From the NCBI GenBank assembly GCA_963809485.1, contig CAWEJX010000009.1, positions 64,001-128,000 of the forward strand: a stretch of DNA of 64,000 nt, in the 5' to 3' direction. Made by a program: the position numbers and the translations under genes. Below are positions 2,645 through 48,617 of the stretch, one piece after another. The notes under the pieces were generated by a model. It was not told the origin of the DNA. It saw nothing but the letters and a program-made list of their open reading frames with translations, and did not search any database. Position 1 is the stretch's first letter. Each line of letters opens with the position of its first letter. The stretch is from an uncultured Acidobacteriota bacterium (GTDB taxonomy: Bacteria > Acidobacteriota > UBA6911).

Positions 2645-3934
2645 CTATTTCCCCTGGACGACAGGCAGAGTCAAAAGCGCGTGCGGCACGATGAGAACAT
2701 CACAGGACGCTCCCACTTTTGCAGCCGCCATCCGGACAGCTTCGTCCATGGTCGCGGCAGGAGTCATTTTGCATGCGGCGACGATCTCGGGGCAATCGCT
2801 TCCCACGATAATTACGTGGGACTTTTCCAGGACTTTCGCCATCACGAATGCCCGCTGCTGCCCCGGCGGGAATCCGTTCCGGCGCCCGTCATCCAGGATG
2901 AAGGGAATGTCCGGAGCATCCCGCATCGCCGACAGGAAACGCTGTTCGCCCACGCCGCTGCCCGCTCCCTCTTCACAACGGGCCGGAATAATAAAAAAGC
3001 CGCCGGGCCGCACGACGCACGTCGGGGCGAAAAAAAGATAGGAAGGCGCGCGGCTTGCCTGGTACAGGTTGCAGTCCTTGGGAAATCCCACTCCGCCGAT
3101 TGCAATATCGTATTGATGGGGGATCGGAACTTCATACACCGAGCGCGCAAATGCGACCAGGTCCTGGAATGCCTCCTCGGGATGCCCCGCCGTCACGCGC
3201 AGCAGGCGCTTATCCTCATCAAGGACCACATTGAGGATAAAACGGAGGCCCTCGCGCCGCGCCGCTTCCGTGACGGCCTCGTGAAATGGATTCCCCTCGA
3301 TCTGTCCCAGACGCGTGCCCGGGTGATCCACGAAAGCAGGGCCGTGAGTGTGGGCAATCAGCGCTTCGCCCGCGGCTCCGACCGCCAGGGTCTTCCGTCC
3401 CCCCGAATAGCCGCCGTACTGATGGGGCTCGACGATGCCGGTGGCAATGACCAGGTCGGATTCGACAACTGCCCTGTGCGCAGAAACGGGAACACCGCCC
3501 TCGGTGATCCCGAGGTCGACAAGAGCGGCCGTGTTCTGGGGCTCATTGTCGATGACCCGGAAGCGGGCCACGATATCAGCACCAAGCTTTGCGACCTTCT
3601 CTTCATGGGTTGAAGGCCGGTGCATGCCGATGCCGCACAACAGGGTGATATCTTCGTCGCGCACGCCGGCCTGCTCCAACTCCGACAGCAGGGGAGGCAC
3701 GAGCAGCTGGTCCGGGCAGGAGCGCGTGATGTCCGTAAAAACGATACAGGCGCGCATGCCCGGACGCGCCATCTCGCTGAGAGGCGGCGTACCGAGCGGA
3801 TGAGCCAGGGCAGCCGCCACCGCTGCCTTTTCATCCCCAACAGGGCGGAATGGCTTCGAAACCGCCTGAGTAACTCTCATCGCAGGCGGGAGGGAGAATT
3901 GAATTGTCCCTTTACCATAAGGCACTGTGTACAT
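2645..3934 (-). CDS. larA: LarA-family nickel-pincer-dependent alpha-hydroxy acid racemase/epimerase
   Basis: Motifs DITR, GMHRP, EPHQYGGYSGGRK (cofactor-linked Lys), NPFH, NLYQA and CEEGAG. Confidence 0.85.
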   Translation of the reverse strand: MYTVPYGKGTIQFSLPPAMRVTQAVSKPFRPVGDEKAAVAAALAHPLGTPPLSEMARPGMRACIVFTDITRSCPDQLLVPPLLSELEQAGVRDEDITLLCGIGMHRPSTHEEKVAKLGADIVARFRVIDNEPQNTAALVDLGITEGGVPVSAHRAVVESDLVIATGIVEPHQYGGYSGGRKTLAVGAAGEALIAHTHGPAFVDHPGTRLGQIEGNPFHEAVTEAARREGLRFILNVVLDEDKRLLRVTAGHPEEAFQDLVAFARSVYEVPIPHQYDIAIGGVGFPKDCNLYQASRAPSYLFFAPTCVVRPGGFFIIPARCEEGAGSGVGEQRFLSAMRDAPDIPFILDDGRRNGFPPGQQRAFVMAKVLEKSHVIIVGSDCPEIVAACKMTPAATMDEAVRMAAAKVGASCDVLIVPHALLTLPVVQGK

Positions 3935-16370: not shown

Positions 16371-16483
16371 AGTTCCGTTCTCCCTGTATCGCGGGCATTA
16401 TAAACCATTTGCGAACTCCGCCGCTGCCCCGAAAAATCCCGGATTTGAAAATTGGCGTTGCGGGACCCGTTTATTATATAGTT

Positions 16484-18535
16484 ATGGGCATGGATAATGT
16501 TTCGAAGCGTTATCACACGCTGCTCGAAATATCCGAAGCCATCGCTGCCCATTATCAGTTTTCAGATTTTTTTCAGTCTTTGAAAAGCAGCCTTGGGCGG
16601 ATTATTCGCTTTGACAGCTTCGGTATTTCCCTGTATGACCCGGAGCAGCAGACGAGCCGGCTGTACATGCTCGAACCCGACATGCCCGTGGAATTCCCCG
16701 TCGGAAGGATTTTTCGCGCGGATGAAACCCCGAATGCCTCGGTACTCCAAACGCTGCAGCCCTATTACGCCCCGGATGTTGAGCAGGACCATCGCTTTCC
16801 TGAAGTCTCCGGCTCCATGCGGCGCCAGGGAATCAGGAGCTGCTGCGTGCTGCCCCTTCACACGGCCCGGCGCAGGCTGGGAGTCCTGTTTTTCGGGGCT
16901 GCGGTAAAAAATGCTTATCCCAGCGGGGACATCGAGTTCATGCAGGATGCGGCCCGTCAGATCGGCGTGGCGCTGGAAAACCTGCTGAACCACGAAGCTG
17001 CTGCCGCGATGCAGGCAGAACTGGCCAATGAGCGCGACCATCTTCAGCTGCTGCTCGACGTGAGTGATGCGGTGGCTGCCGAACTGGACATCCGGAAGCT
17101 TTTCGTCTCCATCTCGACCTGCCTGAGGAAGCTGCTGAAAGCTGAGTTCGCAAGTCTCACCCTCATCGACGAGGACACAGGGCTCCTGCGGCGCCTGTCG
17201 CTTGATTTTCCGGGCAGCCGGGGCGTATTTGAAGAAAACGCGCTGCTGCCACGCGAAGGGACTCCAGCAGGCGAAGCGTTATCAAAACGGGCTCCGGCTC
17301 TGTGGCTCCGGGAGAAAATGGAAAGCGTCAACCAGCCCTGGGCCAGGAACCTGCTCCGGGAGGGATTGGTCGAGTTCTGCGCAGCCCCTCTTATATCACG
17401 GCAGCGAGAACTCGGCACGCTCAACCTTCTCAGCCGGCGCGAGGGCGCTTTCAGCGAATCCCACATCAAGCTGCTCCTGGAAGTTGCGGCGCATTTCGCG
17501 ATCGCGCTGGACAATGCCCTTGCATACCGCCGCATCGGGGAGCTGAATCAGAAACTGGCCAAGGAAAACCTTTACCTGACGGACGAGATCCGCAGCAATT
17601 ATTTATTCGAAGAAATTATCGGCGAAAGTAAAAGCCTGCAGAAAGCCCTGAAACAGGTTGATCTCGTAGCCCCTTCGGATTCGACGGTGCTGATATGCGG
17701 CGAGACAGGAACCGGCAAGGAACAAATCGCCCGCGCCATCCACAACCTCAGTGAGCGCCGGATGAGCACGTTCGTTAAACTCAACTGCGCAGCCATACCG
17801 ACCGGGCTGCTCGAAAGCGAAATGTTCGGACATGAAAAGGGAGCATTCACGGGCGCCATCGCTCAGCGCATCGGCCGCTTCGAGCTTGCGCATCGCGGCA
17901 CGCTGTTCCTGGATGAAATCGGCGACATCCCGCTCGAGCTCCAGTCAAAACTGTTGCGCGTGCTGCAGGAACAGGAATTCGAGCGGCTGGGGAGCGGAAG
18001 CACCATTCGGGTGGACGTTCGACTTGTCGCCGCTACCAACCGCAATCTTCCGGAAATGGTGGAAAAGGGAGAATTCCGGAATGACCTGTTTTATCGGCTG
18101 AATGTTTTCCCGATTGTTTTGCCGCCGTTGCGGCAGCGCAGCGATGATATTCCGCTGTTGGTCCGGTATTTTGCTCAGCAGGTCGCACGGCGCATGGGAA
18201 AGAAGATCCGCACAATCCCCGCAGAGACCATGGATAAGCTGGTTCGGTATCCCTGGCCGGGAAACGTGCGGGAACTGCAGAATCTGATTGAAAGGGCCGT
18301 AATCCTCTCTCCCGGGGACGTGCTGCAGGTACCGATCACCGAACTGAAAATTCCTTCCACACCAGCCGGGCACCCCGCGCAGACTCTTGAACAGGCCGAG
18401 CGCCTGCACGTCCTTGATGCATTGCGCGAGACCAACTGGGTTGTCAGCGGGCCGCGCGGAGCAGCCGCGCGGCTGGGCTTGAAACGCTCCACCCTTCAAT
18501 CCCGCATGAAAAAGCTTGGCATCCGCAAGGCATAG
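16484..18535 (+). CDS. FhlA-type sigma54 enhancer-binding protein (two GAF domains, AAA+, Fis HTH)
   Basis: GETGTGKE, GAFTGA, LFLDEIG, WPGNVREL and C-terminal GAAARLGLKRSTL, with two N-terminal GAF-like repeats. Confidence 0.92.
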   Translation: MGMDNVSKRYHTLLEISEAIAAHYQFSDFFQSLKSSLGRIIRFDSFGISLYDPEQQTSRLYMLEPDMPVEFPVGRIFRADETPNASVLQTLQPYYAPDVEQDHRFPEVSGSMRRQGIRSCCVLPLHTARRRLGVLFFGAAVKNAYPSGDIEFMQDAARQIGVALENLLNHEAAAAMQAELANERDHLQLLLDVSDAVAAELDIRKLFVSISTCLRKLLKAEFASLTLIDEDTGLLRRLSLDFPGSRGVFEENALLPREGTPAGEALSKRAPALWLREKMESVNQPWARNLLREGLVEFCAAPLISRQRELGTLNLLSRREGAFSESHIKLLLEVAAHFAIALDNALAYRRIGELNQKLAKENLYLTDEIRSNYLFEEIIGESKSLQKALKQVDLVAPSDSTVLICGETGTGKEQIARAIHNLSERRMSTFVKLNCAAIPTGLLESEMFGHEKGAFTGAIAQRIGRFELAHRGTLFLDEIGDIPLELQSKLLRVLQEQEFERLGSGSTIRVDVRLVAATNRNLPEMVEKGEFRNDLFYRLNVFPIVLPPLRQRSDDIPLLVRYFAQQVARRMGKKIRTIPAETMDKLVRYPWPGNVRELQNLIERAVILSPGDVLQVPITELKIPSTPAGHPAQTLEQAERLHVLDALRETNWVVSGPRGAAARLGLKRSTLQSRMKKLGIRKA

Positions 18536-18692: not shown

Positions 18693-18708
18693 TGGCACGC
18701 AATTTGCA
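18693..18708 (+). promoter_or_regulatory. sigma54 -24/-12 promoter
   Basis: TGGCAC-GCAAT-TTGCA, a consensus match. Confidence 0.8.
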
Positions 18709-18737: not shown

Positions 18738-19022
18738 ATGCTAAAAATTACCACCATCGATGCAAACGGTACCAGAAAGCTAAAGCTTGAAGGGAAGCTC
18801 AAAGAGGCATGGGTTCTCGAGCTTGAGCAGTGCTGGCGGAGTCTGGATGGGCGAAGGAGGATTGTCGTCGATCTGACGGACGTTGATTTTGTGGACACGG
18901 CCGGCAAATATCTGCTGGCTCTTATGTATGGCCGCGGCGCCCGCTTTGTTGCGGACAGCCCGATGATGAAGCAGTACCTGGCCAAGCTTGTGGCCACTTC
19001 CAAGCACCTGACAAACAATTGA
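18738..19022 (+). CDS. STAS-domain (anti-anti-sigma-like) protein
   Basis: LKLEGKL...WV.ELE.CW and VVDLTDVDFVDTAG STAS motif. Confidence 0.8.
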   Translation: MLKITTIDANGTRKLKLEGKLKEAWVLELEQCWRSLDGRRRIVVDLTDVDFVDTAGKYLLALMYGRGARFVADSPMMKQYLAKLVATSKHLTNN

Positions 19023-19637: not shown

Positions 19638-19739
19638 TTTTCTAAACTATTTCGATACACAATTTTCTGAGTAAGCGCCTATTCTGCTGTAATGACAGAT
19701 TCATTGGGTCCTGCATGTTCGCAAAACGGGAGGGAACAA

Positions 19740-21479
19740 ATGAGCCAAAACTGGCGGGAACTCATCAGTCAACCCAAGCACAACATCAAAACCGAGAAGG
19801 ATGTTTTTGCACCGATGCGGGATGGGACTCGCTTGTGCGTGAATATCTACCGTCCGGAGGCAGCCGGGAGATTTCCTGCGTTACTGGCCATGGGCGGATA
19901 CGGCAAGGAGTTGCAGGAACTTCTGATCCCGCCGCAGCCGCTTCATAAAAGCGCGGTCTGGGATGGGAACATCGAGGCCGGGGATACACCGGACATAGTG
20001 CCCCGCGGATATGTGCATGTGATCGCGGACGCGCGCGGGACGGGCAAATCCGAGGGAGAATTTCCCGGCATGTGGTCTTCGCAGGAAGGCCGGGACGGTC
20101 ACGACCTGGTCGAGTGGATCGCGCAGCAGCCGTGGTGCGACGGGAACGTGGGAATGATCGGCTACTCTTACTATGGCTGCATCCAGCTGAAAGTGGCGAT
20201 TGAACAGCCGCCGCATCTGAAGGCAATTTTCGTTTCCCATCTGGTCAACGATTTCTACCGGGACGGCGTATACGGCGGAGGTGTGCTCGGCCTGTTTTAC
20301 TACGGGATCTGGGACGGCCGGCACGGCACGAGCGGCTTTGCTCCCAAAAACGCTCCCGTACTATCGATGAAGGAATTTTCCGGGGAGGAGTTCGAGCGCA
20401 GGCGCCAGGCGCTGTTGAACGATCCGGATATCCGGCACTATCCCAATATCTACCACTTGTTGAACTACCCCCAAAAGAATCCATGGGTCTTCGACATGCT
20501 CATGCATCCCTTTGACGGCCCCTTCTGGCAGGACCGGTCCATTTATCCTCATTTTGACAAAATCAGGATTCCCGTGTACGTGGTCGGCAAGGCCGCGCAC
20601 GGCGCCGGAGCTTTCTGGGATATTTACAGCGGCATTCAATCGGCCAAGAGACTGCTGGTCAAACCTTTCGGGCCGGAGGAGAGGCCGTGGCGCGAGGATA
20701 CCGAACTCATCATCCGCTGGTACGACCATTGGCTGAAGGGCTTGGACACCGGAATAATGAACGGACCGCCCATTCACATGTTTGTCCAGGGAATCAACCG
20801 GTGGCGCGATGAGACGGAGTGGCCCCTCCCGGGAACCGAGTGGGTAAAATGCTACCTCCGCCGATGGGAGAACCTGTCTTTCGCCCCTGAGCGTTATCAG
20901 CATCACCCGGACTGCTTCCTTCAGCAACCGCTTTACCTGTCCAACAAGCGAGACTCCGTCAAGTATGTCAGCGCACCCATGCCCGAGAACATAACGGTTA
21001 TCGGGCCTTCCGCATTCAACTTTTACGCTTCCATCGACACGGACGATACCAACTGGATCGTCAAATTGAGCGATGTGGCCCCGGGCGGCGCGGAGACGCC
21101 ACTGGCCAAGGGCATCCTGAAAGCCTCGCACCGTGCCCTGGACCGGGAAAAATCGAGGCCCTATGCCCCCTATCACACACACGTCCAATCGGATCCGGTC
21201 GTGCCAGACGAAATCAACGAGTACAATGTAAGTCTGGGCAAGATAACCAATGTCTTCAGGGGGGGCCACCGCATTAAACTCGAAATACTGAGTCTGGAGT
21301 CTCCCAGGGATCCTGAGATGCAGATTCATTATCACCCGACGCTGCCCAGCAGCAGGACCACTCTGCACAAGATTTACCGCAATAAGGAGTACCCTTCGCA
21401 CCTTGTGCTCCCTATCGTGGGCAGGAAGGACAGCGTGATGGAATACCTGAGCGACGAGAATATGGTGGGGGCGCTTTAG
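19740..21479 (+). CDS. CocE/NonD family hydrolase (peptidase S15-like)
   Basis: PMRDGTRL, DARGTGKSEG, WCDGNVGMIGYSYYG nucleophile elbow, RWYDHWLKG, and a C-terminal jelly-roll (FRGGHRI). Confidence 0.9.
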   Translation: MSQNWRELISQPKHNIKTEKDVFAPMRDGTRLCVNIYRPEAAGRFPALLAMGGYGKELQELLIPPQPLHKSAVWDGNIEAGDTPDIVPRGYVHVIADARGTGKSEGEFPGMWSSQEGRDGHDLVEWIAQQPWCDGNVGMIGYSYYGCIQLKVAIEQPPHLKAIFVSHLVNDFYRDGVYGGGVLGLFYYGIWDGRHGTSGFAPKNAPVLSMKEFSGEEFERRRQALLNDPDIRHYPNIYHLLNYPQKNPWVFDMLMHPFDGPFWQDRSIYPHFDKIRIPVYVVGKAAHGAGAFWDIYSGIQSAKRLLVKPFGPEERPWREDTELIIRWYDHWLKGLDTGIMNGPPIHMFVQGINRWRDETEWPLPGTEWVKCYLRRWENLSFAPERYQHHPDCFLQQPLYLSNKRDSVKYVSAPMPENITVIGPSAFNFYASIDTDDTNWIVKLSDVAPGGAETPLAKGILKASHRALDREKSRPYAPYHTHVQSDPVVPDEINEYNVSLGKITNVFRGGHRIKLEILSLESPRDPEMQIHYHPTLPSSRTTLHKIYRNKEYPSHLVLPIVGRKDSVMEYLSDENMVGAL

Positions 21480-21907: not shown

Positions 21908-22624
21908 TTATTTCGATGGCGGCGGTATCCTCTTGGGCTTGGGTTTTCCCTTTTCCGACGAGCCATCGGAATCGATCCAGATATATTTATTCCTCATGTC
22001 CGCCGGTACCATGTCCTTGAAGGAAGTCTCAACATCCTTGGGCGAATACTGGGCTTCTATAAATATGAAGGGTCGCGTGACCTTCGTGACGGTAAAGGGA
22101 CAATGAATGAACCCGCCGTGGTATGAACACCAGGGACGGCTTCGAAATGACATGCTTTTCCATCTCCGGCCCCATATAGACGAATGTATTCAGCTCCCAG
22201 CTCCTGTGGATGTTCGATATCGGTGCCCAGCGCCACCAAAACCTCCGGATCCCTGTGCTTGTGCGGACCATGCCCAGCTATCTTGGTTGCGGACTCGCCC
22301 ATCAGCATGGCGGAAAAGAAGTGGCATCCCTCGATGATGTCACCGTCGCAAAAGACGAGGAACATATTCTTGGCCGCGCCGATATCCTATTTCCAGTTCC
22401 TCAGGCCTCAGCTCGGTCGTGAAGTATTTTCGATACTTCAGTTCCCCCGCCTGCGGGACAGCGGGCTGGACAAGCGGGCCGGGCGCTGCGATCAACTGGC
22501 CGCTTGGGGGCTGGAGGGCTGCGCTCAAGGCGCCGGCAAACGCTGCGCCGGCCGCGCCGACAGCCACATCCTTGACAAACCCTCTCCGCGATGTGCTTCT
22601 CTTATCAATCCTGATGAGACTCAT
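21908..22624 (-). pseudogene. Tat-exported cupin-like protein, split by three +1 frameshifts (probably sequencing errors)
   Basis: SRRGFVK twin-Arg signal. The reconstructed protein reads GPHKHRDPEVLVALGTD..HPQELGAE..YMGPEMEKHVISKPSLVFIP.GFIHCPF, with shifts near 22382, 22188 and 22118. Confidence 0.65.
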
Positions 22625-23340
22625 TGATTTTCTCCTTTACCGATGGATACGTGAGTTCCCTTCCTGGTGTTTCGCGCGAATTCCCTGATGATGACGGCAT
22701 GATATCCCATCTTCCCGCGCTATTCACCCATTATCGAATTCCGGGATATACAAAAGCTCGCCTCCTTACAGGATACAGAGAGACCAAAGGCAGTAAGCCG
22801 GGAGGCATCGGTCCGCTTCGGGTGCCCAAACGGAAAGACTCTTCTATGCTTTGAGACTCTTCCACACCTGAGGCTTTCTCCGGCTTTCAAGGCCGGTTTT
22901 GGCTGCCAGGGGCGGCCGCAGGATCGAGCCCGCAGTTTTGCCTGAATCCCGATGGTTTTGCATTGACAACGTTTGCCCGCTAGATTATCAAACTAATACC
23001 CGGCGCCATGCGCCCGGATGGCATGACTCACTGTTCATTTCTGGATTGGCTGGGCTTCTGTTGCGGATCATTGATGATTTTCCCAAATTTCAATCATCAG
23101 GCATTCAATCAGGCAGGCAGTGTTTGGCAGGAGCCCGTGCAGTCGGGAGGCTCGCGGATTGATTAATTCTGCAATCGCCTCGATCCATGAACCGCGCATC
23201 GAGAGCCCCTGCCGGGACAAGGCTCATGGCCTATGCAGCGCTCGGCAGCGGCGCGAGATGGGTCCATCGGGGCCGTCCCATCAATCCCGGATATTTGCCG
23301 GATCCGCCGGCGCAAAGCCCGATCGAGGGAGGCGTAGTCC

Positions 23341-24627
23341 ATGTCCATAGCTATTGTCGGAATGCTGGACGAGAGAGAAGAAGCTCTCGGAATCATCAGA
23401 GATTGCATTGCGCAGCGCGGCCACAAGCCCCTCTTGATGGATATCAGCGTCGGAACTGGCGCCATTGTCCCCTCGCTCCAGGCGGATGTTCGTTGCGATG
23501 AGTTGCTCGAATTGGGCAGAAAAAGCGCAGAGCCGGGTCCAGGGGGCAAAAGCACCGTGACATCTGTCATGGCCCAGGGGCTGGTGGCGAAGATCCTGGA
23601 GCTCCAGAGGTCGGGAGAACTGCAGGGCATCATCGCCATCACCGGGATGACGGGCGCGCTCATATCGCTGACCGCAATGAAAGCATTGCCTTTCGGCGTC
23701 CCCAAGCTTCTCGTATCCGGCGCCACCGCCCAGCCCGCACACGCAAGCCAGTTCGCCGATTATTTTGCGGTCCGCGATATAACGGTAATGAACACCGTGG
23801 TCGACACCGTAGGAATGAATGCGCTGGTCCGGACACTCGCTGTCAACGGAGCCAACGCCATTTCCGGGATGGTGGAAGGGGCCCGGGGCCTCCGGCATGA
23901 GAGCCGGCCCTCCATTGCCATCACCGAATTCGGCTTTTGCGAGAAGGGGGCGCATCACATCCGGGCAATTCTGGAGAAGGAATACGATCTGGTCTCATTT
24001 CATGCAACGGGTCTGGGCGACAAAGCCGTGATGGATCTGTTGCCCCAGGGGATCTTCCAAGCATTTGTCGATCTTGTCCCGGGGGCTTTCAGCGAACACC
24101 TCCTCGGAGGCAACAGAGGCTTCGTGGGACCGAACCGCCTGGATGCGGCTTCCGCTTTGCCTCTGCCTTACATTTTTTGTCCGGGCGGTTTTGACATCAT
24201 AAGCTGCGGGCCCATGGAAAGGAGGGACAGGAATGATCCGCTCTGGACATCGCGCAGGCTTGCGGAGAGAAAACTGTTCGTGCAGGACCCTCCCAGGGTC
24301 CAGGCCAGGATGAATCCCGAAGAAACGGAATATGTAGCCGCAGCCGCCGCAGAAAGGCTGAATCAATACAGCCTCAAGGCAAGGGTCAAGGCCGTAATCC
24401 CGCGCAGAGGCTTTTCCTCCATCAGCATGGAAGGGGGCCCGCTTCACGATCCTGCGGCCGACAGGGTTTTTGCGGCCGCTTTCAAAGAGCATCTGGATCG
24501 CGAAATAGAAATCATTGAAGTGGACTCGGACATAAACAGCCCCGCTTTCGCAGAGGCCGTGGCGGGGGCGTTGGCGCGCGCCATGACAGGAGAAACCGGA
24601 AAGGGAGGTTCATCGCAGCATGGATAA
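23341..24627 (+). CDS. UPF0261 / Tm-1-like ATP-binding protein (divergent copy)
   Basis: MKALPFGVPKLLVS, DITVMNTVVD..GMN, NGANAISGM, FHATGLG, NRLDAA, PGGFD and DINSPAFA. Confidence 0.85.
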   Translation: MSIAIVGMLDEREEALGIIRDCIAQRGHKPLLMDISVGTGAIVPSLQADVRCDELLELGRKSAEPGPGGKSTVTSVMAQGLVAKILELQRSGELQGIIAITGMTGALISLTAMKALPFGVPKLLVSGATAQPAHASQFADYFAVRDITVMNTVVDTVGMNALVRTLAVNGANAISGMVEGARGLRHESRPSIAITEFGFCEKGAHHIRAILEKEYDLVSFHATGLGDKAVMDLLPQGIFQAFVDLVPGAFSEHLLGGNRGFVGPNRLDAASALPLPYIFCPGGFDIISCGPMERRDRNDPLWTSRRLAERKLFVQDPPRVQARMNPEETEYVAAAAAERLNQYSLKARVKAVIPRRGFSSISMEGGPLHDPAADRVFAAAFKEHLDREIEIIEVDSDINSPAFAEAVAGALARAMTGETGKGGSSQHG

Positions 24628-26356
24628 GATCGAATTCGTCGATCAAACCATCCGGGATGCTCAACAGAGCCTCTGGGGCCTGATGATGCGGACCGACCAC
24701 ATAGTCCCGATTGCGGAAACCATGGGCAAAGTGGGATACCGGGCGATCGCGACCGTCGGTTCCCAGGCGTTCACCGTGCAGGTTCGAAAACACAATGAAG
24801 ATCCGTGGGAGAGGATCCGGACTCTCTCTCAACTTATGCCCCGGACCTGCCTGCGCGGGTCCTACCAGACGGCCAGCCTTTCCGCATTCGACCTCAGCAC
24901 TCCTCGAAATATCATTGTTCTCTGGATAAAGCGGTCCGTGGCCAACGGCATCAGAAGCTTCTGGATCTGCGACTACCAGGAAAACATGGAGAGGTTCCGA
25001 TATTTCGCCCACATAGCCCGGAACGAGGGAGCCGAGATCGTCACGGCGCTGATGTACACGCAAAGCCCGGCCCATACCGATGAGCATTGGGCGCAAAAAG
25101 TCCGGCTGATAGCGGACTCGAAGGACTGCATCGACCGCATCATGATCGAGGACGCCTCCGGCATCCTGACGCCGGAGCGAACGCGCAAGCTGGTCTCCAC
25201 GGTTCAGAAAAATTGCGGCGGCATTCCGCTCGAGTTCCACGGTCACTGCAATTCCGGGCTGGCGCCTCTCTGCTACCTGGAAGCCATTGAATCAGGCGTC
25301 ACGACCGTCCATACCGCGGTTGCGCCTCTTGCCAACGGCACTTCCATGCCTTCGACAGAGAACATATTGAGAAACGCGCGCCGCCTGGGCTATGAATCCG
25401 ATTTGAACGAGGATGCTCTTTCCGCCGTATCCGCCCATTTCAGGGCGATTGCCCAAAAGGAAGGATTGCCCGTCGGCGCGCCCGTGGAATATGACCTCTT
25501 CCATTTTGAGCACCAGGTTCCCGGGGGGATGATGACAAACCTGACGCGGCAGCTCCGGGAGGTGGGAATGGAGCACCGTTTGAGTGAAATCCTTCCCGAG
25601 GTCGCAAAAGTGCGCAAGGAATTCGGATATCCCGTGATGGCGACCCCTTATTCCCAGATCGTCGGATCGCAGGCTGTCGAGAACATTGTCTCGGGCGAAC
25701 GATATAAAAAGATCACGGACGAGACCATTAAATATGCCCTGGGCTACTATGGCCAGCCCGTCGTTCCACTGGATCCGAATCTGATGGACAAAATCCTGAG
25801 CTTGCCCAGGACAAGGGAATTTCAGGACTGGGAGCCGGAAGGGTACCACAAATCCATTGAACAGCTGCGCGAGGAAATCGGGCCCGGGCTTTCCGACGAC
25901 GACCTGCTGCTCCAGGTTCTGATTCCCGGCAAACCGCTTCGGCGCGGCGAGCATAAGGCCCGGGCCCATGCGCCGATCGCGGCCGCTGAAGCAACCGGCG
26001 GATCCCCCATCGGATTCAGGAGCGTTGCGGGGAGGTTCAGCGTGGAGGTGGACGGAGAGATATTCAATGTAAAAATCTCGCCCGTCCCGGAAGAATCCGA
26101 TAAAACCGTTGAAAATGGCCAATCGCGGCCTGCGGAATTGCCCCAAGGATCGGTGGTCTGCGACATCGCGGGACTGGTGCTCTCGATTGAGGTGAAAGTC
26201 GGGGACCGCGTGCATGAGGGAGACCCGGTCGCGGTGATCGAGGCGATGAAAATGAGAAGGCAGATTCACTCGCCCCTCGAAGGGGTGGTCCGCGGTATTT
26301 TGGCAAGAGAGGGCGAAATCGTCGACATCAACGATGTTCTGATGGTGGTATCCTGA
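24620..26356 (+). CDS. carboxyltransferase plus biotin carrier (pyruvate carboxylase subunit B / OadA-like), non-canonical active site
   Basis: TIRDAQQSL, EDPWERIR, FHGHCNSG, HQVPGGMMTNL, ATPYSQIVG and C-terminal EAMKM biotinylation motif. Confidence 0.88.
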   Translation: MDKIEFVDQTIRDAQQSLWGLMMRTDHIVPIAETMGKVGYRAIATVGSQAFTVQVRKHNEDPWERIRTLSQLMPRTCLRGSYQTASLSAFDLSTPRNIIVLWIKRSVANGIRSFWICDYQENMERFRYFAHIARNEGAEIVTALMYTQSPAHTDEHWAQKVRLIADSKDCIDRIMIEDASGILTPERTRKLVSTVQKNCGGIPLEFHGHCNSGLAPLCYLEAIESGVTTVHTAVAPLANGTSMPSTENILRNARRLGYESDLNEDALSAVSAHFRAIAQKEGLPVGAPVEYDLFHFEHQVPGGMMTNLTRQLREVGMEHRLSEILPEVAKVRKEFGYPVMATPYSQIVGSQAVENIVSGERYKKITDETIKYALGYYGQPVVPLDPNLMDKILSLPRTREFQDWEPEGYHKSIEQLREEIGPGLSDDDLLLQVLIPGKPLRRGEHKARAHAPIAAAEATGGSPIGFRSVAGRFSVEVDGEIFNVKISPVPEESDKTVENGQSRPAELPQGSVVCDIAGLVLSIEVKVGDRVHEGDPVAVIEAMKMRRQIHSPLEGVVRGILAREGEIVDINDVLMVVS

Positions 26357-26357
26357 A

Positions 26358-27833
26358 ATGATCAAGAAGATTCTCATAGCCAATCGCGGCGAGATCGCAA
26401 TCCGTGTTATGAGGGCATGCCGCGAAATGGGAATCCCTTCCGTCGCCGTATTTTCGGAAGCGGACAGGGATGCGCTTTTTACCAGGTACGCGGACGAAGC
26501 TTACGGGATCGGCCCGGCGCCGGCATCCCGGAGCTATCTCAATATCCCCAAAATCATCCAAACCGCCAGAGAATGCGGGGCTGATGCAATCCATCCCGGA
26601 TACGGATTCCTGGCGGAAAATCCGGAATTTGCCCTGGCCTGTGAGAAGGAAGGGATCCGCTTTATCGGGCCATCCAGCGGCGTGCTCAGGCTCCTGGGCG
26701 ACAAGCTGGCTGCAAGGCGCGAGATGATTAAGGCAAGCATCCCTGTTGTGCCGGGAACGGTTGAGCGCGTGGAGAACTTCGAGCATGCCCGCAGCGCGGC
26801 CGGAGCCATCGGATATCCCGTGATGATCAAGCCGTCGGGAGGCGGCGGGGGGATCGGGATGACGGTGGTCGGGAACGAAAGCGAGCTGGCGGATGCGCTG
26901 GAATCCGCGAGCGCGATCGCCAGGACGACTTTCGGCCTCGGAGACGTTTACATCGAGAAGTATCTGTTTCACCCGCGCCACATTGAGTTCCAGATACTGG
27001 GGGATTCCGGGGGCCATGTCATCCATCTGGGAGAACGGGAATGCTCCATTCAGCGAAGGCATCAAAAGCTGATCGAGGAATCGCCGTCCACGGCGCTCAC
27101 TCCTGAGCTGCGTGAAGCCATGGGCGCGACCGCGGTGAAAGCCGCCCGGTGTGTCGGGTATGAAGGGGCGGGCACCGTGGAGTTTCTCTTTTCGAATGGA
27201 AGCTTCTATTTCCTCGAAGTGAACGCCAGGGTTCAAGTGGAGCATCCGGTTACGGAGATGGTGACCGGCACGGATATCGTGAAGGAACAGATTCGGATTG
27301 CCGCGGGACTGCCTCTTCGTTACAGGCAGGAGGACGTGAGGATCAGGGGGAGCGCCATCGAGTGCCGTATCAATGCGGAAGATCCGCTGAATGGCTTTGT
27401 CCCGGCACCTGGAAAGATTCAGACCTATCATGCTCCCGGCGGCACAGGCATCCGGGTAGACAGCGGAGTCTGCAGCTCCTGCTCCATCCCGCCTTTCTAC
27501 GATCCGCTGATATCAAAGCTCATCGTCTGGGGCACGGACAGGGATGAGGCGATCGCAAAAATGCAAAGAGCCCTTTACGAATATGTGATCCTCGGAGTCG
27601 CAAGCAACATTCCGTTCCACCAGGCGGTGATGGAGAATCCGCGGTTCAGGGCCGGGGAACTGGAGACTGGATTCATCGACCGGGAAGTTTCACTGAACGC
27701 TGACATAAGACGTATTGTGGAGACTGGAGGGCGATTGCAGGATAGATTTCCCCGCCAGGCTGAAAACAGGAAAAAGGTCGTCGCAATGGCGGTTGCCGCC
27801 GCTTTGTCCGGTGCGCTCGAACCGAGGCAATGA
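26358..27833 (+). CDS. biotin carboxylase (PycA/AccC-like)
   Basis: KILIANRGEIA, HPGYGFLAEN, ERECSIQRRHQKLIEE, EVNARVQVEHPVTE, RINAED and YDPLISKL. Confidence 0.95.
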   Translation: MIKKILIANRGEIAIRVMRACREMGIPSVAVFSEADRDALFTRYADEAYGIGPAPASRSYLNIPKIIQTARECGADAIHPGYGFLAENPEFALACEKEGIRFIGPSSGVLRLLGDKLAARREMIKASIPVVPGTVERVENFEHARSAAGAIGYPVMIKPSGGGGGIGMTVVGNESELADALESASAIARTTFGLGDVYIEKYLFHPRHIEFQILGDSGGHVIHLGERECSIQRRHQKLIEESPSTALTPELREAMGATAVKAARCVGYEGAGTVEFLFSNGSFYFLEVNARVQVEHPVTEMVTGTDIVKEQIRIAAGLPLRYRQEDVRIRGSAIECRINAEDPLNGFVPAPGKIQTYHAPGGTGIRVDSGVCSSCSIPPFYDPLISKLIVWGTDRDEAIAKMQRALYEYVILGVASNIPFHQAVMENPRFRAGELETGFIDREVSLNADIRRIVETGGRLQDRFPRQAENRKKVVAMAVAAALSGALEPRQ

Positions 27834-27910
27834 AGCTGCAGCCCTGTCCGGGGCGCCATGGAATCGATCCATCGGAGTTTGATGCCATTCGGAATCTTCG
27901 GAGGTTTTCT

Positions 27911-29143
27911 ATGAGTAGCAAGCCGAAAGTCATGATGATTGTTACGATGGACACCAAAGAGGCTGAGGCCCGCTTTATGCGAAAGTGCCTGGAAGACAAT
28001 GGCCTCGAGGTTTACCACCTCGACGCCAGCATACTCCGGACGATTGATTGCGGGGCTGCCATCACTCCAGATCAGATCGCTGCGGCGGCCGGCAAAACCA
28101 TGCCCGAGGTCCGGGCTCTCAACCACGAAGCCAAATGTCTGGCCATTATGATCGAGGGAGCCATCCCGTGCGCCCAAGAGCTCCACCGGCAGGTCGGGCT
28201 CAGCGGAATCCTTGCTGCGGGAGGTTCGCTGGGGACTGTTCTCGGCTCGGCGGTTATGCGGACATTCCCGTTCGGCCTTCCCAAGATGATGATCTCGACC
28301 ATGGCGTCCGGAAATACACTGCCCTACGTCGGCACCCGCGATATCGTCATGGTTCCCTCGATATGCGACATTGCCGGCTTAAACACCGTGACACGATGCG
28401 TGTTTCAAAATGCGTCTCGCGCCCTCGCCGGAATGGCTCATGGCTACAAGCCTCTTCCGGCTTCCGACAAACCCCTGATCGCGATTTCAACCCTCAGCAC
28501 CACCGAAAAATGCTGCACCGCGATTCGCGAAGCTCTGGAGCAGCGAGGCTTTGAAGTGATGGTCTTCCACACGCAGGGGACCGGCGGCGTCGCCATGGAT
28601 GTAACCGTCCGCGAGCAGGACGTCTCCATCGCCGTGAATCTGTCGCTGATTGAAGTCAGTGACTTTCTGGTCCAGGGCCTGTTCAGCGGAGGCCCCGACA
28701 GGTGCAAGGCATCGCTTGAAAAGGGTATCCCGACGATCTTTGTGCCGGGCAACATCGACTTCATGGTTGCAGGCCCGATTGAAGACGCGAAGGTCCGCTT
28801 TCCCGGCAGGCGTTATCACGTCCACAACGAAGTGCTGACGGCGGTTCGAGCGGAGGCTGGGGAGTTCAAGCGTGTGGCGGATCATATGGCAGGGCTGATC
28901 CGAGAGGCGAAGGGGTCCGTGGCGTTCCTTGTCCCGCTGCTCGGATTTTCCAATCATGACAGTCCGCAAGGCTATTTGTACGATCCGTCCCTTCCTCCTG
29001 TTTTCGCCGAATATATACAGCAGGCAATGCCCGAAGGTGTGCCGATGGTGTTTCTCCCCCATCACATCAACGACAAGCCTTTTGCCGAGGCCATTATTCA
29101 GCAGGTCCTCGCTTTTCAGAAAAACACTGGATCAGCGGGCTGA
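27911..29143 (+). CDS. UPF0261 / Tm-1-like ATP-binding protein
   Basis: TMDTKEAE, GGSLGT, PFGLPKMMISTMASG, DIAGLN, VFHTQGTGG, GPDR and HINDKPFA. Confidence 0.9.
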   Translation: MSSKPKVMMIVTMDTKEAEARFMRKCLEDNGLEVYHLDASILRTIDCGAAITPDQIAAAAGKTMPEVRALNHEAKCLAIMIEGAIPCAQELHRQVGLSGILAAGGSLGTVLGSAVMRTFPFGLPKMMISTMASGNTLPYVGTRDIVMVPSICDIAGLNTVTRCVFQNASRALAGMAHGYKPLPASDKPLIAISTLSTTEKCCTAIREALEQRGFEVMVFHTQGTGGVAMDVTVREQDVSIAVNLSLIEVSDFLVQGLFSGGPDRCKASLEKGIPTIFVPGNIDFMVAGPIEDAKVRFPGRRYHVHNEVLTAVRAEAGEFKRVADHMAGLIREAKGSVAFLVPLLGFSNHDSPQGYLYDPSLPPVFAEYIQQAMPEGVPMVFLPHHINDKPFAEAIIQQVLAFQKNTGSAG

Positions 29144-29443
29144 GCTGCATGAAAACATAATCGGATTGCGCGTTTCCGCATTGACGCGACCCATGATGGA
29201 GTTTCGTCTGGCACGACGGTTCCGGCATGCTCCGGCATTACTCGCAGGCTCTTCGCAAGCGTGCGTAAAGGTCGGGAAGTTCCAAAAATTGAGAAGCCCC
29301 TCGCCCATCGTCTTCGTGCAACTATGAGGTTGCAGCGCCATTCGATGAAGGTTTACAATCCGCATCAAGAACGGGGACGTTCATAGATTTCCGAGTGATT
29401 CCCCGTCGCGCAAATAACCTGGAAGCCATCGGAGGAGATTTTT

Positions 29444-30538
29444 ATGGGAAAGATAAGAATTGTCTGCGCCCCTGCATTCCTGCTTTTTGCTGTTGCGGCC
29501 TTTGGCCAGATCAACCAGCCGAACCATCTGCCGTACAAAGACCTTATTTTCGCTCAGCTCGCCACGGGCGGAATCTGGGAAACACAGATAACGGTTACCA
29601 ACCGCGGCACTCAGCCATGGGAGGGAGATTTTCATTTCTATACCGGCGAGGGATCGGCGTGGAATCCCTATGTGAACGGCGTCCAATTGATCGGCGGCAG
29701 CCTCGCGGTAACGCTTAGTCCCAAAAGAACTGCGACCTATAAAATAACCATGCCCGGCTCCGTGATTGTGCCGGGATTCGTGATGGCCATAGCCGACAAC
29801 ACCGATCTGGACAATTTCATTGAAGGCAATTTGACGTGGTTCGTTAAAGACGCAGACAAGGTCACGGATAGTATCGGAGTACTCCCTTCAAATCCCATCA
29901 TGGCAACGACCCTTCCATTTGAGAATTTCAACTCGGTCAGCGTGGCATTCGCCAACACCGATGCTCAGGGACGACCCGCCCATTTGAAATTGAAGCTGTA
30001 TTCGGAATCGGGTAGCCGTGTGGGCGACATTTTTGAGTGGACCCTCGACGCCCGGGAACACCTTCCCCGCTATCTTCGGGAATTATTTACAGGGGTGACG
30101 CTCGGCCGGGGCCGTGTCGATATTTCATCCGATGTCCCCATCAGCGGCGTGGCCCTGATCCAGACAGAATCCCAGTTCGCCTCTCTTCCCTTCAATTCCA
30201 CTGTCCGAACTTATCAGGTCGATGCCTATGGTTCGGAGGTGAACTTCGCGCGGATGACTCTGTGGACCGAGGGCCTTTTCATAAGCGGCTATGTTGCCAT
30301 GGAACGCGAAAGCGTCCTGAGCCTGTTTGCCATAACCGGAAGCATCAAGGACGGGAAAGCGCTGTTGCATTTTGACGGCGACAACGAGACGACAAGCGAC
30401 TATGGCGTCTATGGCTTCATCATTCCTAATGAAGTTTTTGATCCCGACAAAACATCTTTCAGCGGCACGTATTCTGTGGCCATCCCATCCGAGTATGAAT
30501 TCGAAAACGGGTGGTTCGATGCCACTCTGGTTCCGTGA
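29444..30538 (+). CDS. secreted beta-rich hypothetical protein
   Basis: Sec signal, FAQLATGGIWETQITVTN and VAFANT repeats, similar in style to 59916-61574. Confidence 0.7.
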   Translation: MGKIRIVCAPAFLLFAVAAFGQINQPNHLPYKDLIFAQLATGGIWETQITVTNRGTQPWEGDFHFYTGEGSAWNPYVNGVQLIGGSLAVTLSPKRTATYKITMPGSVIVPGFVMAIADNTDLDNFIEGNLTWFVKDADKVTDSIGVLPSNPIMATTLPFENFNSVSVAFANTDAQGRPAHLKLKLYSESGSRVGDIFEWTLDAREHLPRYLRELFTGVTLGRGRVDISSDVPISGVALIQTESQFASLPFNSTVRTYQVDAYGSEVNFARMTLWTEGLFISGYVAMERESVLSLFAITGSIKDGKALLHFDGDNETTSDYGVYGFIIPNEVFDPDKTSFSGTYSVAIPSEYEFENGWFDATLVP

Positions 30539-36479: not shown

Positions 36480-36849
36480 AAGATTTGAACCGCTCAAAGC
36501 GGTTGGACTAGTTACGCCGGTCTTGAACGCTGACTTACGCGGGCAAAAGCCGATGAGGCGCTTCCGATCCCCGCAGGGGCCAACGCTCCGCGCTGGACAG
36601 TTTTCTGCGGCGGCACTGTGGCAAGCGCCGTGCGGCAAGGAGATGAAGGGTATGAGAAACCGGGCGTTTGCCACAGTGCCGCCGCAGAAAACTCCATCGG
36701 AAGCGCCTCATCGGCTTTTGCTCGCCGACCCTCGCCGAACAAATCGGCGTTTGTCAGCGCTTTTATCAGCGTTTCTCAGCGTTTCAAAATACGGAGCTGT
36801 CAAACTCTTTGAGTCCCCCGGCAGAGCCGTGGGTTTACCAATGTAATTA
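36447..36849 (+). mobile_element. non-autonomous IS200/IS605-like palindromic element, copy 1
   Basis: Left hairpin CCTCCGGCAAAGCCGGAGG plus CCGCTCAAAGCGG, right hairpin CCCCCGGCAGAGCCG(T/G)GGG-TTTACC, two nested 26-bp inverted repeats, no transposase. Repeated five times in the window. Confidence 0.7.
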
Positions 36850-46391: not shown

Positions 46392-46767
46392 AGTCAGGCA
46401 CCTCCGGCAAAGCCGGAGGCTTGAAAGATTGGAACCGCTCAAAGCGGTTGGAGGAATTACGCCGGTCTTGAACGCTGACTTACGCGGGCAAAAGCCGATG
46501 AGGAGCTTCCGATCTCCGCAGGGGCCAGCGCTCCGCGCTGGACAGTTTTCTGCGGCGGCACTGTGGCAAGCGCCGTGCGGCAAGGACATGAAGAGTATGA
46601 GAAACCGGGCGTTTGCCACAGTGCCGCCGCAGAAAACTCCATCGGAAGCGCCTCATCGGCTTTTGCTCGCCGACCCTCGCTGAACAAATCGGCGTTTGTC
46701 AGCGCTTTTATCAGCGTTTCTCAGCGTTTCAAAATACGGAGCTGTCAAACGCTTTGAGTCCTCCGGC
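46392..46767 (+). mobile_element. non-autonomous IS200/IS605-like palindromic element, copy 2 (right hairpin truncated)
   Basis: Near-identical to 36447-36849 until GAGTCCTCCGGC. Confidence 0.7.
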
Positions 46768-48170: not shown

Positions 48171-48617
48171 CAACCACCTCCGGCAGATCCGGAGGCTTGA
48201 TTGTATGCCGCTCAAAGCGGTTGGAGGAGTTACGCCGGTCCTGAACGCTGACTTACGCGGGCAAAAGCCGATGAGGCGCTTCCGATCCCCGCAGGGGCCA
48301 GCGCTCCGCGCTGGACAGTTTTCTGCGGCGGCACTGTGGCAAGCGCCGTGCGGCAAGGACATGAAGAGTATGAGAAACCGGGCGTTTGCCACAGTGCCGC
48401 CGCAGAAAACTCCATCGGAAGCGCCTCATCGGCTTTTGCTCGCCGACCCTCGCCGAACAAATCAGCGTTTGTCAGCGCTTTTATCAGCGTTTCTCAGCGT
48501 TTCAAAATACGTAACTGTCAAACTCTCTGAGCTCCCCGGCAGAGTCGGGGGTTTACCAATGTAATTATTCCAGAACTGTAAAACTCTGGGAGTCTCCCAG
48601 CAGAGCCGGGTTTACCA
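48171..48617 (+). mobile_element. non-autonomous IS200/IS605-like palindromic element, copy 3, plus a duplicated right end
   Basis: Full copy 48171-48567, followed by a degenerate second right end CTGTAAAACTCTGGGAGTCTCCCAGCAGAGCCGGGTTTACCA. Confidence 0.7.

Follow-up and report, generated by a model that had tools for sequence, protein, structure and literature searches.

What does a biotin-dependent carboxylase do between two genes of the UPF0261 family? The question is raised by four adjacent genes in a stretch of 64,000 nucleotides (the window) from an uncultured Acidobacteriota bacterium (assembly GCA_963809485.1, contig CAWEJX010000009.1, positions 64,001 to 128,000). In this order, they encode a UPF0261 protein (UPF0261a), a carboxyltransferase (CT) fused to a biotin carboxyl carrier protein (BCCP), a biotin carboxylase (BC) and a second UPF0261 protein (UPF0261b). 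We consider it fairly probable that the operon is a phosphorylate-then-carboxylate module for a 4-hydroxyaryl methyl ketone, i.e. a variant of the Acv/Hpe/Xcc systems in a probably anaerobic acidobacterium. This judgement concerns the identity of the module; the phosphate-removal step, for which UPF0261a is the candidate, is not covered by it and is weighed separately below.

The operon comprises the following features:

23341..24627, + strand: UPF0261a, 428 aa, a divergent UPF0261 paralogue of a distinct 'a' clade (from Pfam, clade residues and tree)
24620..26356, + strand: CT-BCCP fusion, 578 aa (from Pfam, NCBIfam and PDB matches and motif comparison)
24626-25942, + strand: CT barrel, a PycB/AcvE-like TIM barrel, residues 3-441 of the fusion
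26171-26347, + strand: biotinyl domain with EAMKM, residues 518-576 of the fusion
26358..27833, + strand: biotin carboxylase (ATP-grasp), 491 aa (from Pfam, NCBIfam NF006406 and identity to a plasmid AcvD-type protein)
27911..29143, + strand: UPF0261b, predicted MarK-type aromatic kinase, 410 aa (from the PDB 9MPY match, kept residues and ribosome-binding site)

The four-gene operon and its domain calls were confirmed by the coordinates of the open reading frames (ORFs) and by Pfam. All four genes lie on the + strand, the UPF0261a and CT genes overlap by 8 nt and a gap of 1 nt separates the CT and BC genes. Both domains of the UPF0261 family, PF06792 and PF23189 (gathering score 27 bits each), were found in ORF1 (115 bits, E 4.8e-33, and 173.6 bits, E 4.6e-51, respectively) and in ORF4 (187.9 bits, E 2e-55, and 204.1 bits, E 2.1e-60), next to HMGL-like, PYC_OADA and Biotin_lipoyl in ORF2 and three biotin-carboxylase domains in ORF3. 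The open frame of UPF0261b runs from 27830 to 29143 (437 aa); we place the start of the gene at 27911, 77 nt after the BC gene, because the likeness of ORF4 to MarK begins only at residue 28 and a GGAGG lies 8 nt 5' of the ATG at 27911. The assembly (6.04 Mb, 21 contigs, 95.7% complete, 7.3% contamination) has two PF06792 matches, both from this operon, and neither PF09370, the phosphoenolpyruvate (PEP)-hydrolase-like TIM barrel found paired with UPF0261, nor UbiD had a match in this genome. The absence of the TIM barrel had been correctly observed.

UPF0261b resembles the acetovanillone kinase MarK

The premise that UPF0261 is a family of unknown function is out of date, since MarK (Saro_1862) of Novosphingobium aromaticivorans, a UPF0261 protein, was shown to phosphorylate acetovanillone with ATP, yielding ADP (PMC12624787, J Biol Chem 2025). 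Its gene is the first of an operon with acvCDEF, encoding a biotin-dependent carboxylase (AcvCDE) and a HAD phosphatase, and marK was reported to be colocalised with acvCDEF/hpeCBAD homologues in 27 genomes (PMC12624787). A full-text literature search on UPF0261 gave the MarK paper as the only one concerned with bacterial catabolism; its main text mentions neither anaerobes, nor Acidobacteria, nor paralogues. By tblastn, we found the gene order MarK-like, BCCP, BC, CT, HAD on plasmids of P. putida YC-AE1 and Sphingobium yanoikuyae YC-JY1; these clusters are called 'marK-acvCDEF-type' here from gene order and annotation, not from identity to the published Saro proteins.

UPF0261b matched the MarK structure (PDB 9MPY) with 435 bits and E 1.6e-129, residues 28-424 of ORF4 aligning with 1-396 (397 residues), and the MarK-like protein of the P. 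putida plasmid is 55.5% identical to it (tblastn). In MarK the ATP-site motif is Asp14-Thr15-Lys16 and the acetovanillone pocket is formed by Gly195, Thr196, His219, Phe283, Ile285, His304 and His348 (PMC12624787). The residues at these ten positions were scored in an alignment (107 rows) of UPF0261 proteins from the loci described below. UPF0261b reads DTK-S-T-H-F-V-H-H and both plasmid MarK-like proteins read DTK-G-T-H-F-I-H-H. UPF0261b retains eight of the ten residues, i.e. the complete D-T-K motif and five of the seven pocket residues; the two changes are Gly195 to Ser, at a position that makes a backbone contact, and Ile285 to Val. In a quick maximum-likelihood tree (support given by the Shimodaira-Hasegawa-like approximate likelihood ratio test, SH-aLRT, only), UPF0261b and the two plasmid proteins fall in one group of 25 rows with support 94. 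Homology and kept residues alike predict that UPF0261b is a MarK-type aromatic kinase. The proposal that UPF0261 prepares the substrate of the carboxylase fits this evidence, but is not new, as such a role was already established for MarK with AcvCDEF (PMC12624787).

The carboxyltransferase departs from pyruvate-type enzymes

The closest solved relatives of the CT in the PDB are PycB, OadA and 5S. In a MAFFT alignment the CT is 39% identical to the plasmid CT of P. putida (40% and 340 bits by tblastn), 33% to that of S. yanoikuyae and 29% to the genome's own 5S subunit, which served as the in-genome canonical pyruvate-type CT. The plasmid CTs are termed AcvE-type from gene order and annotation, and the comparison with them is one of identity and motifs. 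The BC is 47% identical to the plasmid AcvD-type biotin carboxylase of P. putida and matched NCBIfam NF006406 with 768 bits (cut-off 739). A pyruvate-type motif set was taken from PycB (5ks8), OadA (2nx9), 5S (1rqb) and the genome's own 5S, and compares with the CT of the window and its clade as follows:

RD[AG]HQS: RDAQQSLWG in the clade, with the His changed
ExWGGATFD: ATVGSQAFT in the clade
LLRGQN: RGSYQT in the clade
FR[IV]FD: FWICD in the clade
KDM: IEDAS in Acidobacteriota-labelled loci, ISDES in Actinomycetota-labelled loci
HxH: kept in the window CT as HGH
TP[TS]SQ: TPYSQ in the clade

The pyruvate-type set as a whole is thus not present in the window CT. The changes in five of the motifs are conserved across its clade, and the predicted Asp and His-x-His metal ligands, the Thr-Pro motif and the biotin motif EAMKM are kept. 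The plasmid AcvE-type CTs have QSLWG and are also without ExWGG, LLRGQN and FRxFD, but retain the Lys (IKDPSG). Both the identities and the shared QSLWG place the window CT nearer to the AcvE-type CTs than to the pyruvate-type 5S. We take the metal ligands of this family to be the Asp of RD, the carbamylated Lys of KDM and two His residues, and pyruvate is presumably held by Arg and Gln residues in the pyruvate-type CTs; a literature search gave no paper that documents residue roles in the CT domain of pyruvate carboxylase. If the presumed role of the Lys is right, the Glu at its position (in the Actinomycetota-labelled loci, two residues further on) would replace the carbamate, and the change from Lys to Glu, or to Ser-x-Glu in those loci, would be a natural experiment in metal-site design.

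The NCBIfam scores agree with this picture. The window CT stays far below the cut-offs of the curated equivalogs PRK14041 (304 versus 734 bits), oadA TIGR01108 (383 versus 756.5 bits) and the 5S model (231 versus 827 bits); the only model passed was the domain-level PRK09282, 'pyruvate carboxylase subunit B' (419 versus 402 bits). Judged by its sequence, the CT is a non-canonical enzyme and not of the pyruvate type. No OadB (PF03977) was found in the genome, and a biotin carboxylase gene is present instead, so the original prediction was right that the operon encodes neither a plain pyruvate carboxylase nor an oxaloacetate decarboxylase sodium pump. As in Acv/Hpe/Xcc-type systems, a BC, a BCCP with the biotinyl-Lys motif and a PycB-like CT are encoded beside a predicted aryl kinase.

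The four genes travel together

Species-representative genomes were scanned with an alignment of the 'a' clade, giving 98 confirmed stretches, 80 of which were kept as loci (cited by number, e.g. L044). UPF0261a, CT, BC and UPF0261b were found together by tblastn in 29 of the 80: 18 labelled Acidobacteriota, 10 labelled Actinomycetota and one from a delta-type metagenome-assembled genome (MAG), in another order (L044). Four more Acidobacteriota-labelled loci are truncated by contig ends. UPF0261a is the only one of the four genes in 43 loci with other labels, mostly Thermodesulfobacteriota, and in two loci UPF0261b and UPF0261a are adjacent. Within the same genus, an orthologue of UPF0261a occurs in 17 of 24 other genomes (65-93% identity), accompanied in 15 of the 17 by a second UPF0261 gene that shares its contig and strand and lies about 4-5 kb away. 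Of 300 other genomes drawn evenly from the phylum, one has an orthologue at E <= 1e-100, and this genome belongs to the same genus. The linkage of the four genes is more than chance, and the module is patchy in distribution and has been transferred between phyla as a unit. The co-localisation of UPF0261 with CT and BC genes is therefore found well beyond this genome and is a real, conserved observation. Nevertheless, to call it a candidate new carboxylation system was too strong: UPF0261 genes were already known to lie beside a PycB-like biotin carboxylase, and the operon is a variant of the known Acv/Hpe/Xcc type.

Apart from the nearest relative, L015, the loci do not share the flanks of the module. 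Genes for CoA-transferase A/B, thiolase, SDR and AMP-ligase flank some loci, and URO-D/B12 methyltransferase genes lie directly 3' of UPF0261b in L049 and L053. One Acidobacteriota-labelled variant (L026:11172-18649) consists of UPF0261a, CT, a second, 5S-like CT, a thiolase-like/OB-fold protein, a thiolase and UPF0261b; no BC gene was found within this locus, the 5S-like CT and thiolase-type genes occupying its place. CT homologues without a BCCP, 40-43% identical to the window CT, were observed in the delta-type MAG loci L048 (13159-14619, - strand) and L051 (5142-6491, + strand). They keep the Lys, have a Trp in the FRxFD motif and lie near UPF0261a and dikinase genes, and may represent a third arrangement.

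UPF0261a belongs to a clade that accompanies UbiD carboxylases

The two UPF0261 genes had been regarded as a pair of equals, which they are not. UPF0261a matched PDB 9MPY with only 120 bits (E 1.1e-33) and is 26% identical to the MarK-like protein of the P. putida plasmid. Its N-terminal motif is D10-E11-R12-E13, i.e. D-E-R where MarK has D-T-K, and its ten-position pattern, DER-G-F-H-I-S-Q-I, contains neither the MarK-type ATP motif nor the acetovanillone pocket: the equivalents of Gly195 and His219 are retained and the five other pocket residues are changed. In MarK the two retained residues bind the phenolic oxygen (PMC12624787). Among the 107 alignment rows, 64 have [DE]-E-R, 24 the MarK-type pocket and 19 are of other types. 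The tree groups 66 rows in the 'a' clade (SH-aLRT 99), with the 28 'a' proteins of biotin modules (support 96) nested among those of other contexts. D10, E11, R12, E13, the Gly-rich loop G102-M-T-G-A106 and H221 are invariant in a 19-sequence 'a' alignment with a mean column identity of 74%, which argues against UPF0261a being a decaying copy. To judge from these comparisons, UPF0261a and UPF0261b are unlike proteins, one MarK-like and the other of a separate clade that elsewhere accompanies UbiD carboxylases. This clade is large, well conserved and without prior study, and is the source of the wider interest of the locus.

Fused forms of the 'a' clade were not found among longer proteins, which gave 14 matches, all of them distant fusions of UPF0261 with ABC ATPases (weak evidence). 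These 14 proteins (P0121-P0134; 750-840 aa) carry a distant UPF0261 part (25-33% identity) fused to ABC-transporter ATPase domains and are named branched-chain amino-acid transport ATPases by one source.

We surveyed the neighbours of UPF0261a by clustering 1,052 ORFs from the 80 loci and running Pfam on representatives. In delta-type and some other loci, UPF0261a is part of a recurrent dikinase-UbiD-UbiX gene set, in which the phenylphosphate-synthase-like dikinase is made up of a PEP-utilizers protein (~618 aa) and a PPDK_N protein (~358 aa). Of the 80 loci, 27 have UbiD and 21 have UbiX, and the two parts of the dikinase occur in 21 and 20, respectively. In other anaerobes, 'a'-clade genes lie between those of the UbiD carboxylase and the UbiX flavoprotein, and the sets often include a LysR regulator, a PAC_bac protein and an enzyme resembling phenylacetate-CoA ligase as well. 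In L086 they are followed by genes for XdhC and for subunits of the xanthine-dehydrogenase family that are of the 4-hydroxybenzoyl-CoA-reductase type. The gene content marks these loci as anaerobic phenol-type clusters. A PAC_bac protein follows UPF0261a in 8 loci, and a stand-alone receiver-like (Response_reg) ORF of 174 aa was seen in 12 (e.g. L082:6884-7408), in several cases between the UbiD gene and UPF0261a (e.g. L072, L078, L085 and L092); we know of no role of either protein in phenol carboxylation.

Orthologues of UPF0261a within clusters of this Pps/Ppc type are 49-63% identical to it. In Desulfatiglans anilini, the phe (02049-02059) and ani (around 03868-03876) clusters are of the phenol type; the gamma subunit of phenylphosphate carboxylase is missing, as is reported there for Geobacter, and a homologue of the delta subunit (HAD, PpcD) is encoded elsewhere in the genome, undetected in one study and with a below-average Z-score in the other (PMC6114531, PMC7500099). 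Refolded Ppc-beta and beta2 of this species carboxylate phenylphosphoamidate and not phenylphosphate (PMC6114531, PMC7500099). Two proteins annotated as 'Uncharacterized protein, UPF0261 family', H567DRAFT_02057 of the phe cluster and 03869 of the ani cluster, were detected in its proteome (PMC7500099 supplement), with values of 0, 5.0e7, 5.3e7 and 2.5e9 for 02057 and of 5.4e9, 6.5e8, 0 and 0 for 03869 in columns not matched to growth substrates (PMC7500099). The main texts of PMC6114531 and PMC7500099 make no mention of UPF0261, and our literature search found no link between Tm-1-like proteins and UbiD.

In the studied systems the phosphate is removed by a HAD protein. With two plasmid AcvF-like HAD queries, tblastn gave no match in the window (E <= 1e-3) or in the 80 loci (E <= 1e-5); an adjacent NagD-like phosphatase of the AcvF/HpeD kind is thus lacking. 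Of the ORFs flanking the UbiD-type loci, 97 representatives were compared with Pfam, and two of these encode HAD proteins, one of them within a haem-synthesis gene block (L066). According to the gene orders listed, a dikinase is present in none of the biotin-module loci and a b-type kinase in all 29 complete modules, and the UbiD-type loci have the dikinase, some of them together with a further D-[TS]-K UPF0261. The phosphorylating enzyme (dikinase or b-type kinase) varies and UPF0261a is constant, the common pattern being a phenol kinase and a carboxylase, each of one kind or the other, together with UPF0261a and no conserved HAD. Since UPF0261a recurs and no conserved HAD is seen where the studied systems have AcvF, HpeD or PpcD, UPF0261a might handle phosphate removal; we propose this from gene context alone, as a possible but doubtful assignment.

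A predicted pathway and the evidence for and against it

HpeCBA of Rhodococcus rhodochrous GD02, which is described as a homologue of such carboxylases, carboxylates only the 4-phosphorylated ketone (PMC9618137), and HpeD and AcvF are NagD-like HAD phosphatases (PMC9618137; 10.1101/2022.04.28.489975). For the operon in the window, the most likely substrate would be a ketone of the 4-hydroxyacetophenone or acetovanillone type, i.e. a lignin-type phenolic. First, UPF0261b would phosphorylate the phenolic hydroxyl in the ADP-forming manner of MarK, as homology and kept residues suggest. Second, the biotin carried by the BCCP domain of the CT would be carboxylated by the biotin carboxylase, with bicarbonate as the carbon source and at the expense of ATP, as is the rule in this enzyme family. 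Third, the CT would pass the CO2 on to the methyl carbon of the acetyl side chain, so that the phospho-aryl ketone becomes a phospho-aroylacetate; its predicted metal site consists of Asp13, His207, His209 and Glu177, the latter in the place of the Lys that we take to be carbamylated in pyruvate-type enzymes. Fourth, UPF0261a may act in place of the HAD phosphatase (AcvF/HpeD), the phosphate leaving by hydrolysis or by transfer, a step suggested by comparative genomics. Fifth, the resulting beta-keto acid would be converted to a CoA ester and cleaved to aroyl-CoA and acetyl-CoA, as suggested by the genes for CoA-transferase, ligase and thiolase that adjoin some loci and by a bamA-type ring-cleavage marker in the genome. 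A dearomatising-pathway hydrolase (TIGR03200, 541 bits, cut-off 464) was found in this genome.

Several points weigh against this pathway. The substrate is deduced and the clade is known from sequence only. The CT is only 33-40% identical to the AcvE-type CTs and differs from them in the Lys/Glu position and the BCCP fusion. In the window no CoA-transferase or thiolase gene adjoins the operon, and flanks vary widely among the loci. No 4-hydroxybenzoyl-CoA reductase above the curated cut-off was found in the genome, the best match scoring 669 versus 994.55 bits. The fourth step has its own difficulties. The N-domain of UPF0261a is highly conserved and the Arg in place of Lys keeps the positive charge at the ATP site, and UPF0261a may be a working kinase for another substrate. 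The genome has a match to the plasmid AcvF-type HADs, although a weak NagD-like one on another contig (best E 1.2e-6), and in one UbiD-type locus (L063) a HAD gene does lie beside the dikinase. Furthermore, Ppc-beta and beta2 of D. anilini carboxylate phenylphosphoamidate without any UPF0261 protein (PMC6114531/PMC7500099), and HpeD does not speed up HpeCBA (PMC9618137), which indicates that no link between phosphatase and carboxylase is required.

A still broader role, of the 'a' clade (D-E-R) as the general phosphate-exit enzyme of anaerobic aromatic carboxylation, serving UbiD and biotin carboxylases alike and replacing the HAD subunits (PpcD, AcvF, HpeD) of the studied nitrate-reducing or aerobic bacteria, seems rather improbable to us. 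The phosphoryl group would then be taken off aryl phosphates, possibly to ADP with recovery of ATP. If true, such a role would explain how strict anaerobes carboxylate phenylphosphate without Ppc gamma and delta, and why refolded Ppc-beta and beta2 of D. anilini left phenylphosphate unconverted. UPF0261a accompanies two unrelated kinds of carboxylase at the place of the textbook HAD and is as such a candidate for an unresolved point in anaerobic phenol degradation.

Alternative explanations

The alternative that survives best, although we consider it unlikely, is that UPF0261a and UPF0261b form one hetero-oligomeric kinase, with UPF0261a as a substrate-binding, regulatory or half-site partner and an unlinked phosphatase for the dephosphorylation; the module would still be Acv-like. 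In line with this, the MarK homodimer is joined via its N-domains with the ATP site some 25 Å from the substrate site, and contacts between dimers were invoked by its authors (PMC12624787). Moreover, three delta-type loci (L040, L044 and L045) have a b-type gene immediately next to an a-type gene, and about half of the UbiD-type loci with long flanks hold a second UPF0261 with the D-[TS]-K motif. However, long UbiD-type loci without a second UPF0261 within 10 kb were also found (e.g. L062, L065, L073, L078 and L085). Several UbiD-type loci thus hold UPF0261a alone, indicating that it can work without a MarK-type partner, and neither MarK nor the plasmid clusters need an 'a' partner.

The original prediction had the TIM barrel of the CT replacing the PF09370 barrel as the obligate partner of UPF0261 in a channelling complex. 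This agrees with the absence of PF09370 from the genome, with the 8-nt overlap of the UPF0261a and CT genes, which suggests translational coupling, and with the BCCP-less CT homologues near UPF0261a in the delta-type loci L048 and L051. Yet MarK is active as a homodimer without any TIM-barrel partner (PMC12624787), 'a'-clade proteins are found more often beside UbiD, which is not a TIM barrel, than beside a CT, and the longer proteins, with the limited weight given above, contained no fused 'a'-clade forms. Complex prediction for CT residues 1-470 with UPF0261a returned no answer (score 0.00 in two runs, without controls) and speaks neither for nor against a complex. We found no support for such a physical stand-in and regard it as very unlikely.

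That the substrate is not aromatic but a small hydroxy-ketone or methyl ketone (e.g. acetone, carboxylated to acetoacetate) would suit the genes for 3-oxoacid CoA-transferase A/B, thiolase and SDR that flank several loci and the acetoacetate-CoA ligase gene upstream in the P. putida plasmid cluster. In the Hpe pathway, however, downstream enzymes of these kinds were proposed or used for aroylacetates (PMC9618137), both the stacking His304 and the ketone-binding His348 of the aromatic pocket of MarK are retained in UPF0261b, and methyltransferase genes of the methoxy-aromatic type follow the module in L049 and L053, leaving little room for a small ketone. Finally, an ordinary anaplerotic pyruvate (or 2-oxoglutarate) carboxylase with UPF0261 proteins as regulators or unrelated neighbours, favoured by the narrowly passed PRK09282 model and by PycB, OadA and 5S as best solved relatives, is highly improbable given the equivalog scores far under their cut-offs, the five motifs common to PycB, OadA, 5S and the genome's own 5S that are changed in a clade-conserved manner, the CTs of marK-acvCDEF-type clusters as the nearest proteins compared and the joint movement of the four genes between phyla.

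Upstream region and other features of the window and genome

22630..23340, + strand: non-coding stretch upstream of the operon, expected promoter region (from sequence)

In the region 22600-29600, sigma-70-like sites and terminators did not exceed shuffled sequences, and the upstream stretch itself contains neither a sigma-70-like site nor a strict sigma-54 -24/-12 match. A gene for a sigma-54 activator (GAF/sigma-54) lies at 16409-18535, about 5 kb upstream of the operon, and just after it a good sigma-54 -24/-12-like site, TGGCACGCAATTTGC, was observed at 18693-18707 (+ strand). Control of the operon through this site was considered and rejected, as it precedes other genes, i.e. a 94-aa weakly STAS-like ORF (18738-19022) and a CocE/NonD hydrolase gene (19692-21479). 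The window has seven matches to the sigma-54 pattern, against a shuffle mean of 2.87; seven were reached in 3 of 100 shuffles.

The remaining genes of the window form a mixed set. At 21908-22624 (- strand), short ORFs of 94, 102 and 81 aa follow one another in different frames behind a good ribosome-binding site at about 22630; they have no Pfam match and may be a broken gene. An MFS transporter at 48637-50272 (- strand) is present as two overlapping ORFs that cover MFS_1 profile positions 1-210 and 142-347, which points to a frameshift or to misassembly. Four copies of a repeat, each 181 bp or more in length, lie on the + strand (36540-36720, 46485-46665, 48258-48438 and 58349-58529) and align with a mean column identity of 99%. 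All four have the same orientation, and the alignment is conserved right to both ends. With its perfect inverted repeats at the termini and a long palindrome inside, the element resembles a miniature inverted-repeat transposable element or a large repetitive extragenic palindromic element.

Elsewhere in the genome, the xanthine-dehydrogenase/4-hydroxybenzoyl-CoA-reductase alpha family has 78 matches, an unusually large set of molybdenum hydroxylase genes, of which none reaches the equivalog cut-off. Contig C8 (L097:8758-17738) carries a methylmalonyl-CoA block with the 5S subunit used above, a 12S carboxyltransferase, a glyoxalase-fold protein, two mutase subunits and MeaB. A search of sequencing runs gave no RNA dataset with the window sequence, and wetland and soil DNA metagenomes shared only 15-28% of the sampled words.

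Comparison with known systems

Automatic annotation of the operon would give 'pyruvate carboxylase subunit B', 'acetyl-CoA carboxylase biotin carboxylase' and 'hypothetical protein'. With PycA/PycB, OadA and 5S, the CT shares the fold and, as in PycB, the domain order HMGL-like, PYC_OADA and C-terminal BCCP; it differs in the His of RDxHQS, in ExWGGATFD, LLRGQN, FRxFD and KDM, and in its equivalog scores. Tm-1 and the bacterial pairs of UPF0261 with PF09370 have the same two-domain UPF0261 fold, and Tm-1 chains in the PDB match both window proteins, but the genome lacks the PF09370 partner and the context here is catabolic.

With the Pps/Ppc system of Thauera aromatica and the phe/ani clusters of D. 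anilini, the link is UPF0261a, orthologues of which lie in dikinase-UbiD-UbiX-CoA ligase clusters of this type; the window genome, in contrast, is without UbiD, and its carboxylase is biotin-dependent and predicted to act on the side chain, not on the ring. The chemical logic proposed for the window is that of HpeHI-HpeCBA-HpeD (R. rhodochrous GD02), AcvABCDEF (Sphingobium sp. SYK-6) and XccABC (Aromatoleum aromaticum EbN1): the phenol is phosphorylated, the acetyl group carboxylated by a biotin enzyme, the phosphate removed and a CoA ester made and cleaved. Those systems, however, use an AMP-forming phenylphosphate-synthase-like dikinase, three separate carboxylase subunits and a HAD phosphatase. 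The CT subunit of the SYK-6 Acv system is PycB-like (10.1101/2022.04.28.489975); an initial assignment of AcvDE as KipI/KipA-like was dropped in view of this preprint.

New, as far as our literature search reaches, are the UPF0261 'a' clade with its links to carboxylases of two unrelated types, the apparent substitution for the HAD phosphatase, the fused CT-BCCP with a Glu at the Lys position and the occurrence in uncultured Acidobacteriota and Actinomycetota. The nearest known relative is MarK-AcvCDEF, in which, as in the window, a UPF0261 kinase is encoded directly beside a biotin-dependent carboxylase with a PycB-like CT. UPF0261b keeps the ATP motif and the acetovanillone pocket of MarK, and kinase, BC and CT are 55%, 47% and 40% identical, respectively, to those of the P. 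putida plasmid cluster of this type. The differences are that the BCCP is fused to the CT (a separate AcvC there), that an AcvF-type HAD is missing and a divergent second UPF0261 gene leads the operon, that the clade of the window CT has Glu (or Ser-x-Glu) for the Lys of the KD motif and that the hosts are uncultured Acidobacteriota and Actinomycetota MAGs instead of aerobic proteobacteria. The chemistry would thus be known and the protein cast different, connecting these uncultured Acidobacteriota and Actinomycetota to the turnover of lignin-derived or bisphenol-type phenolic ketones.

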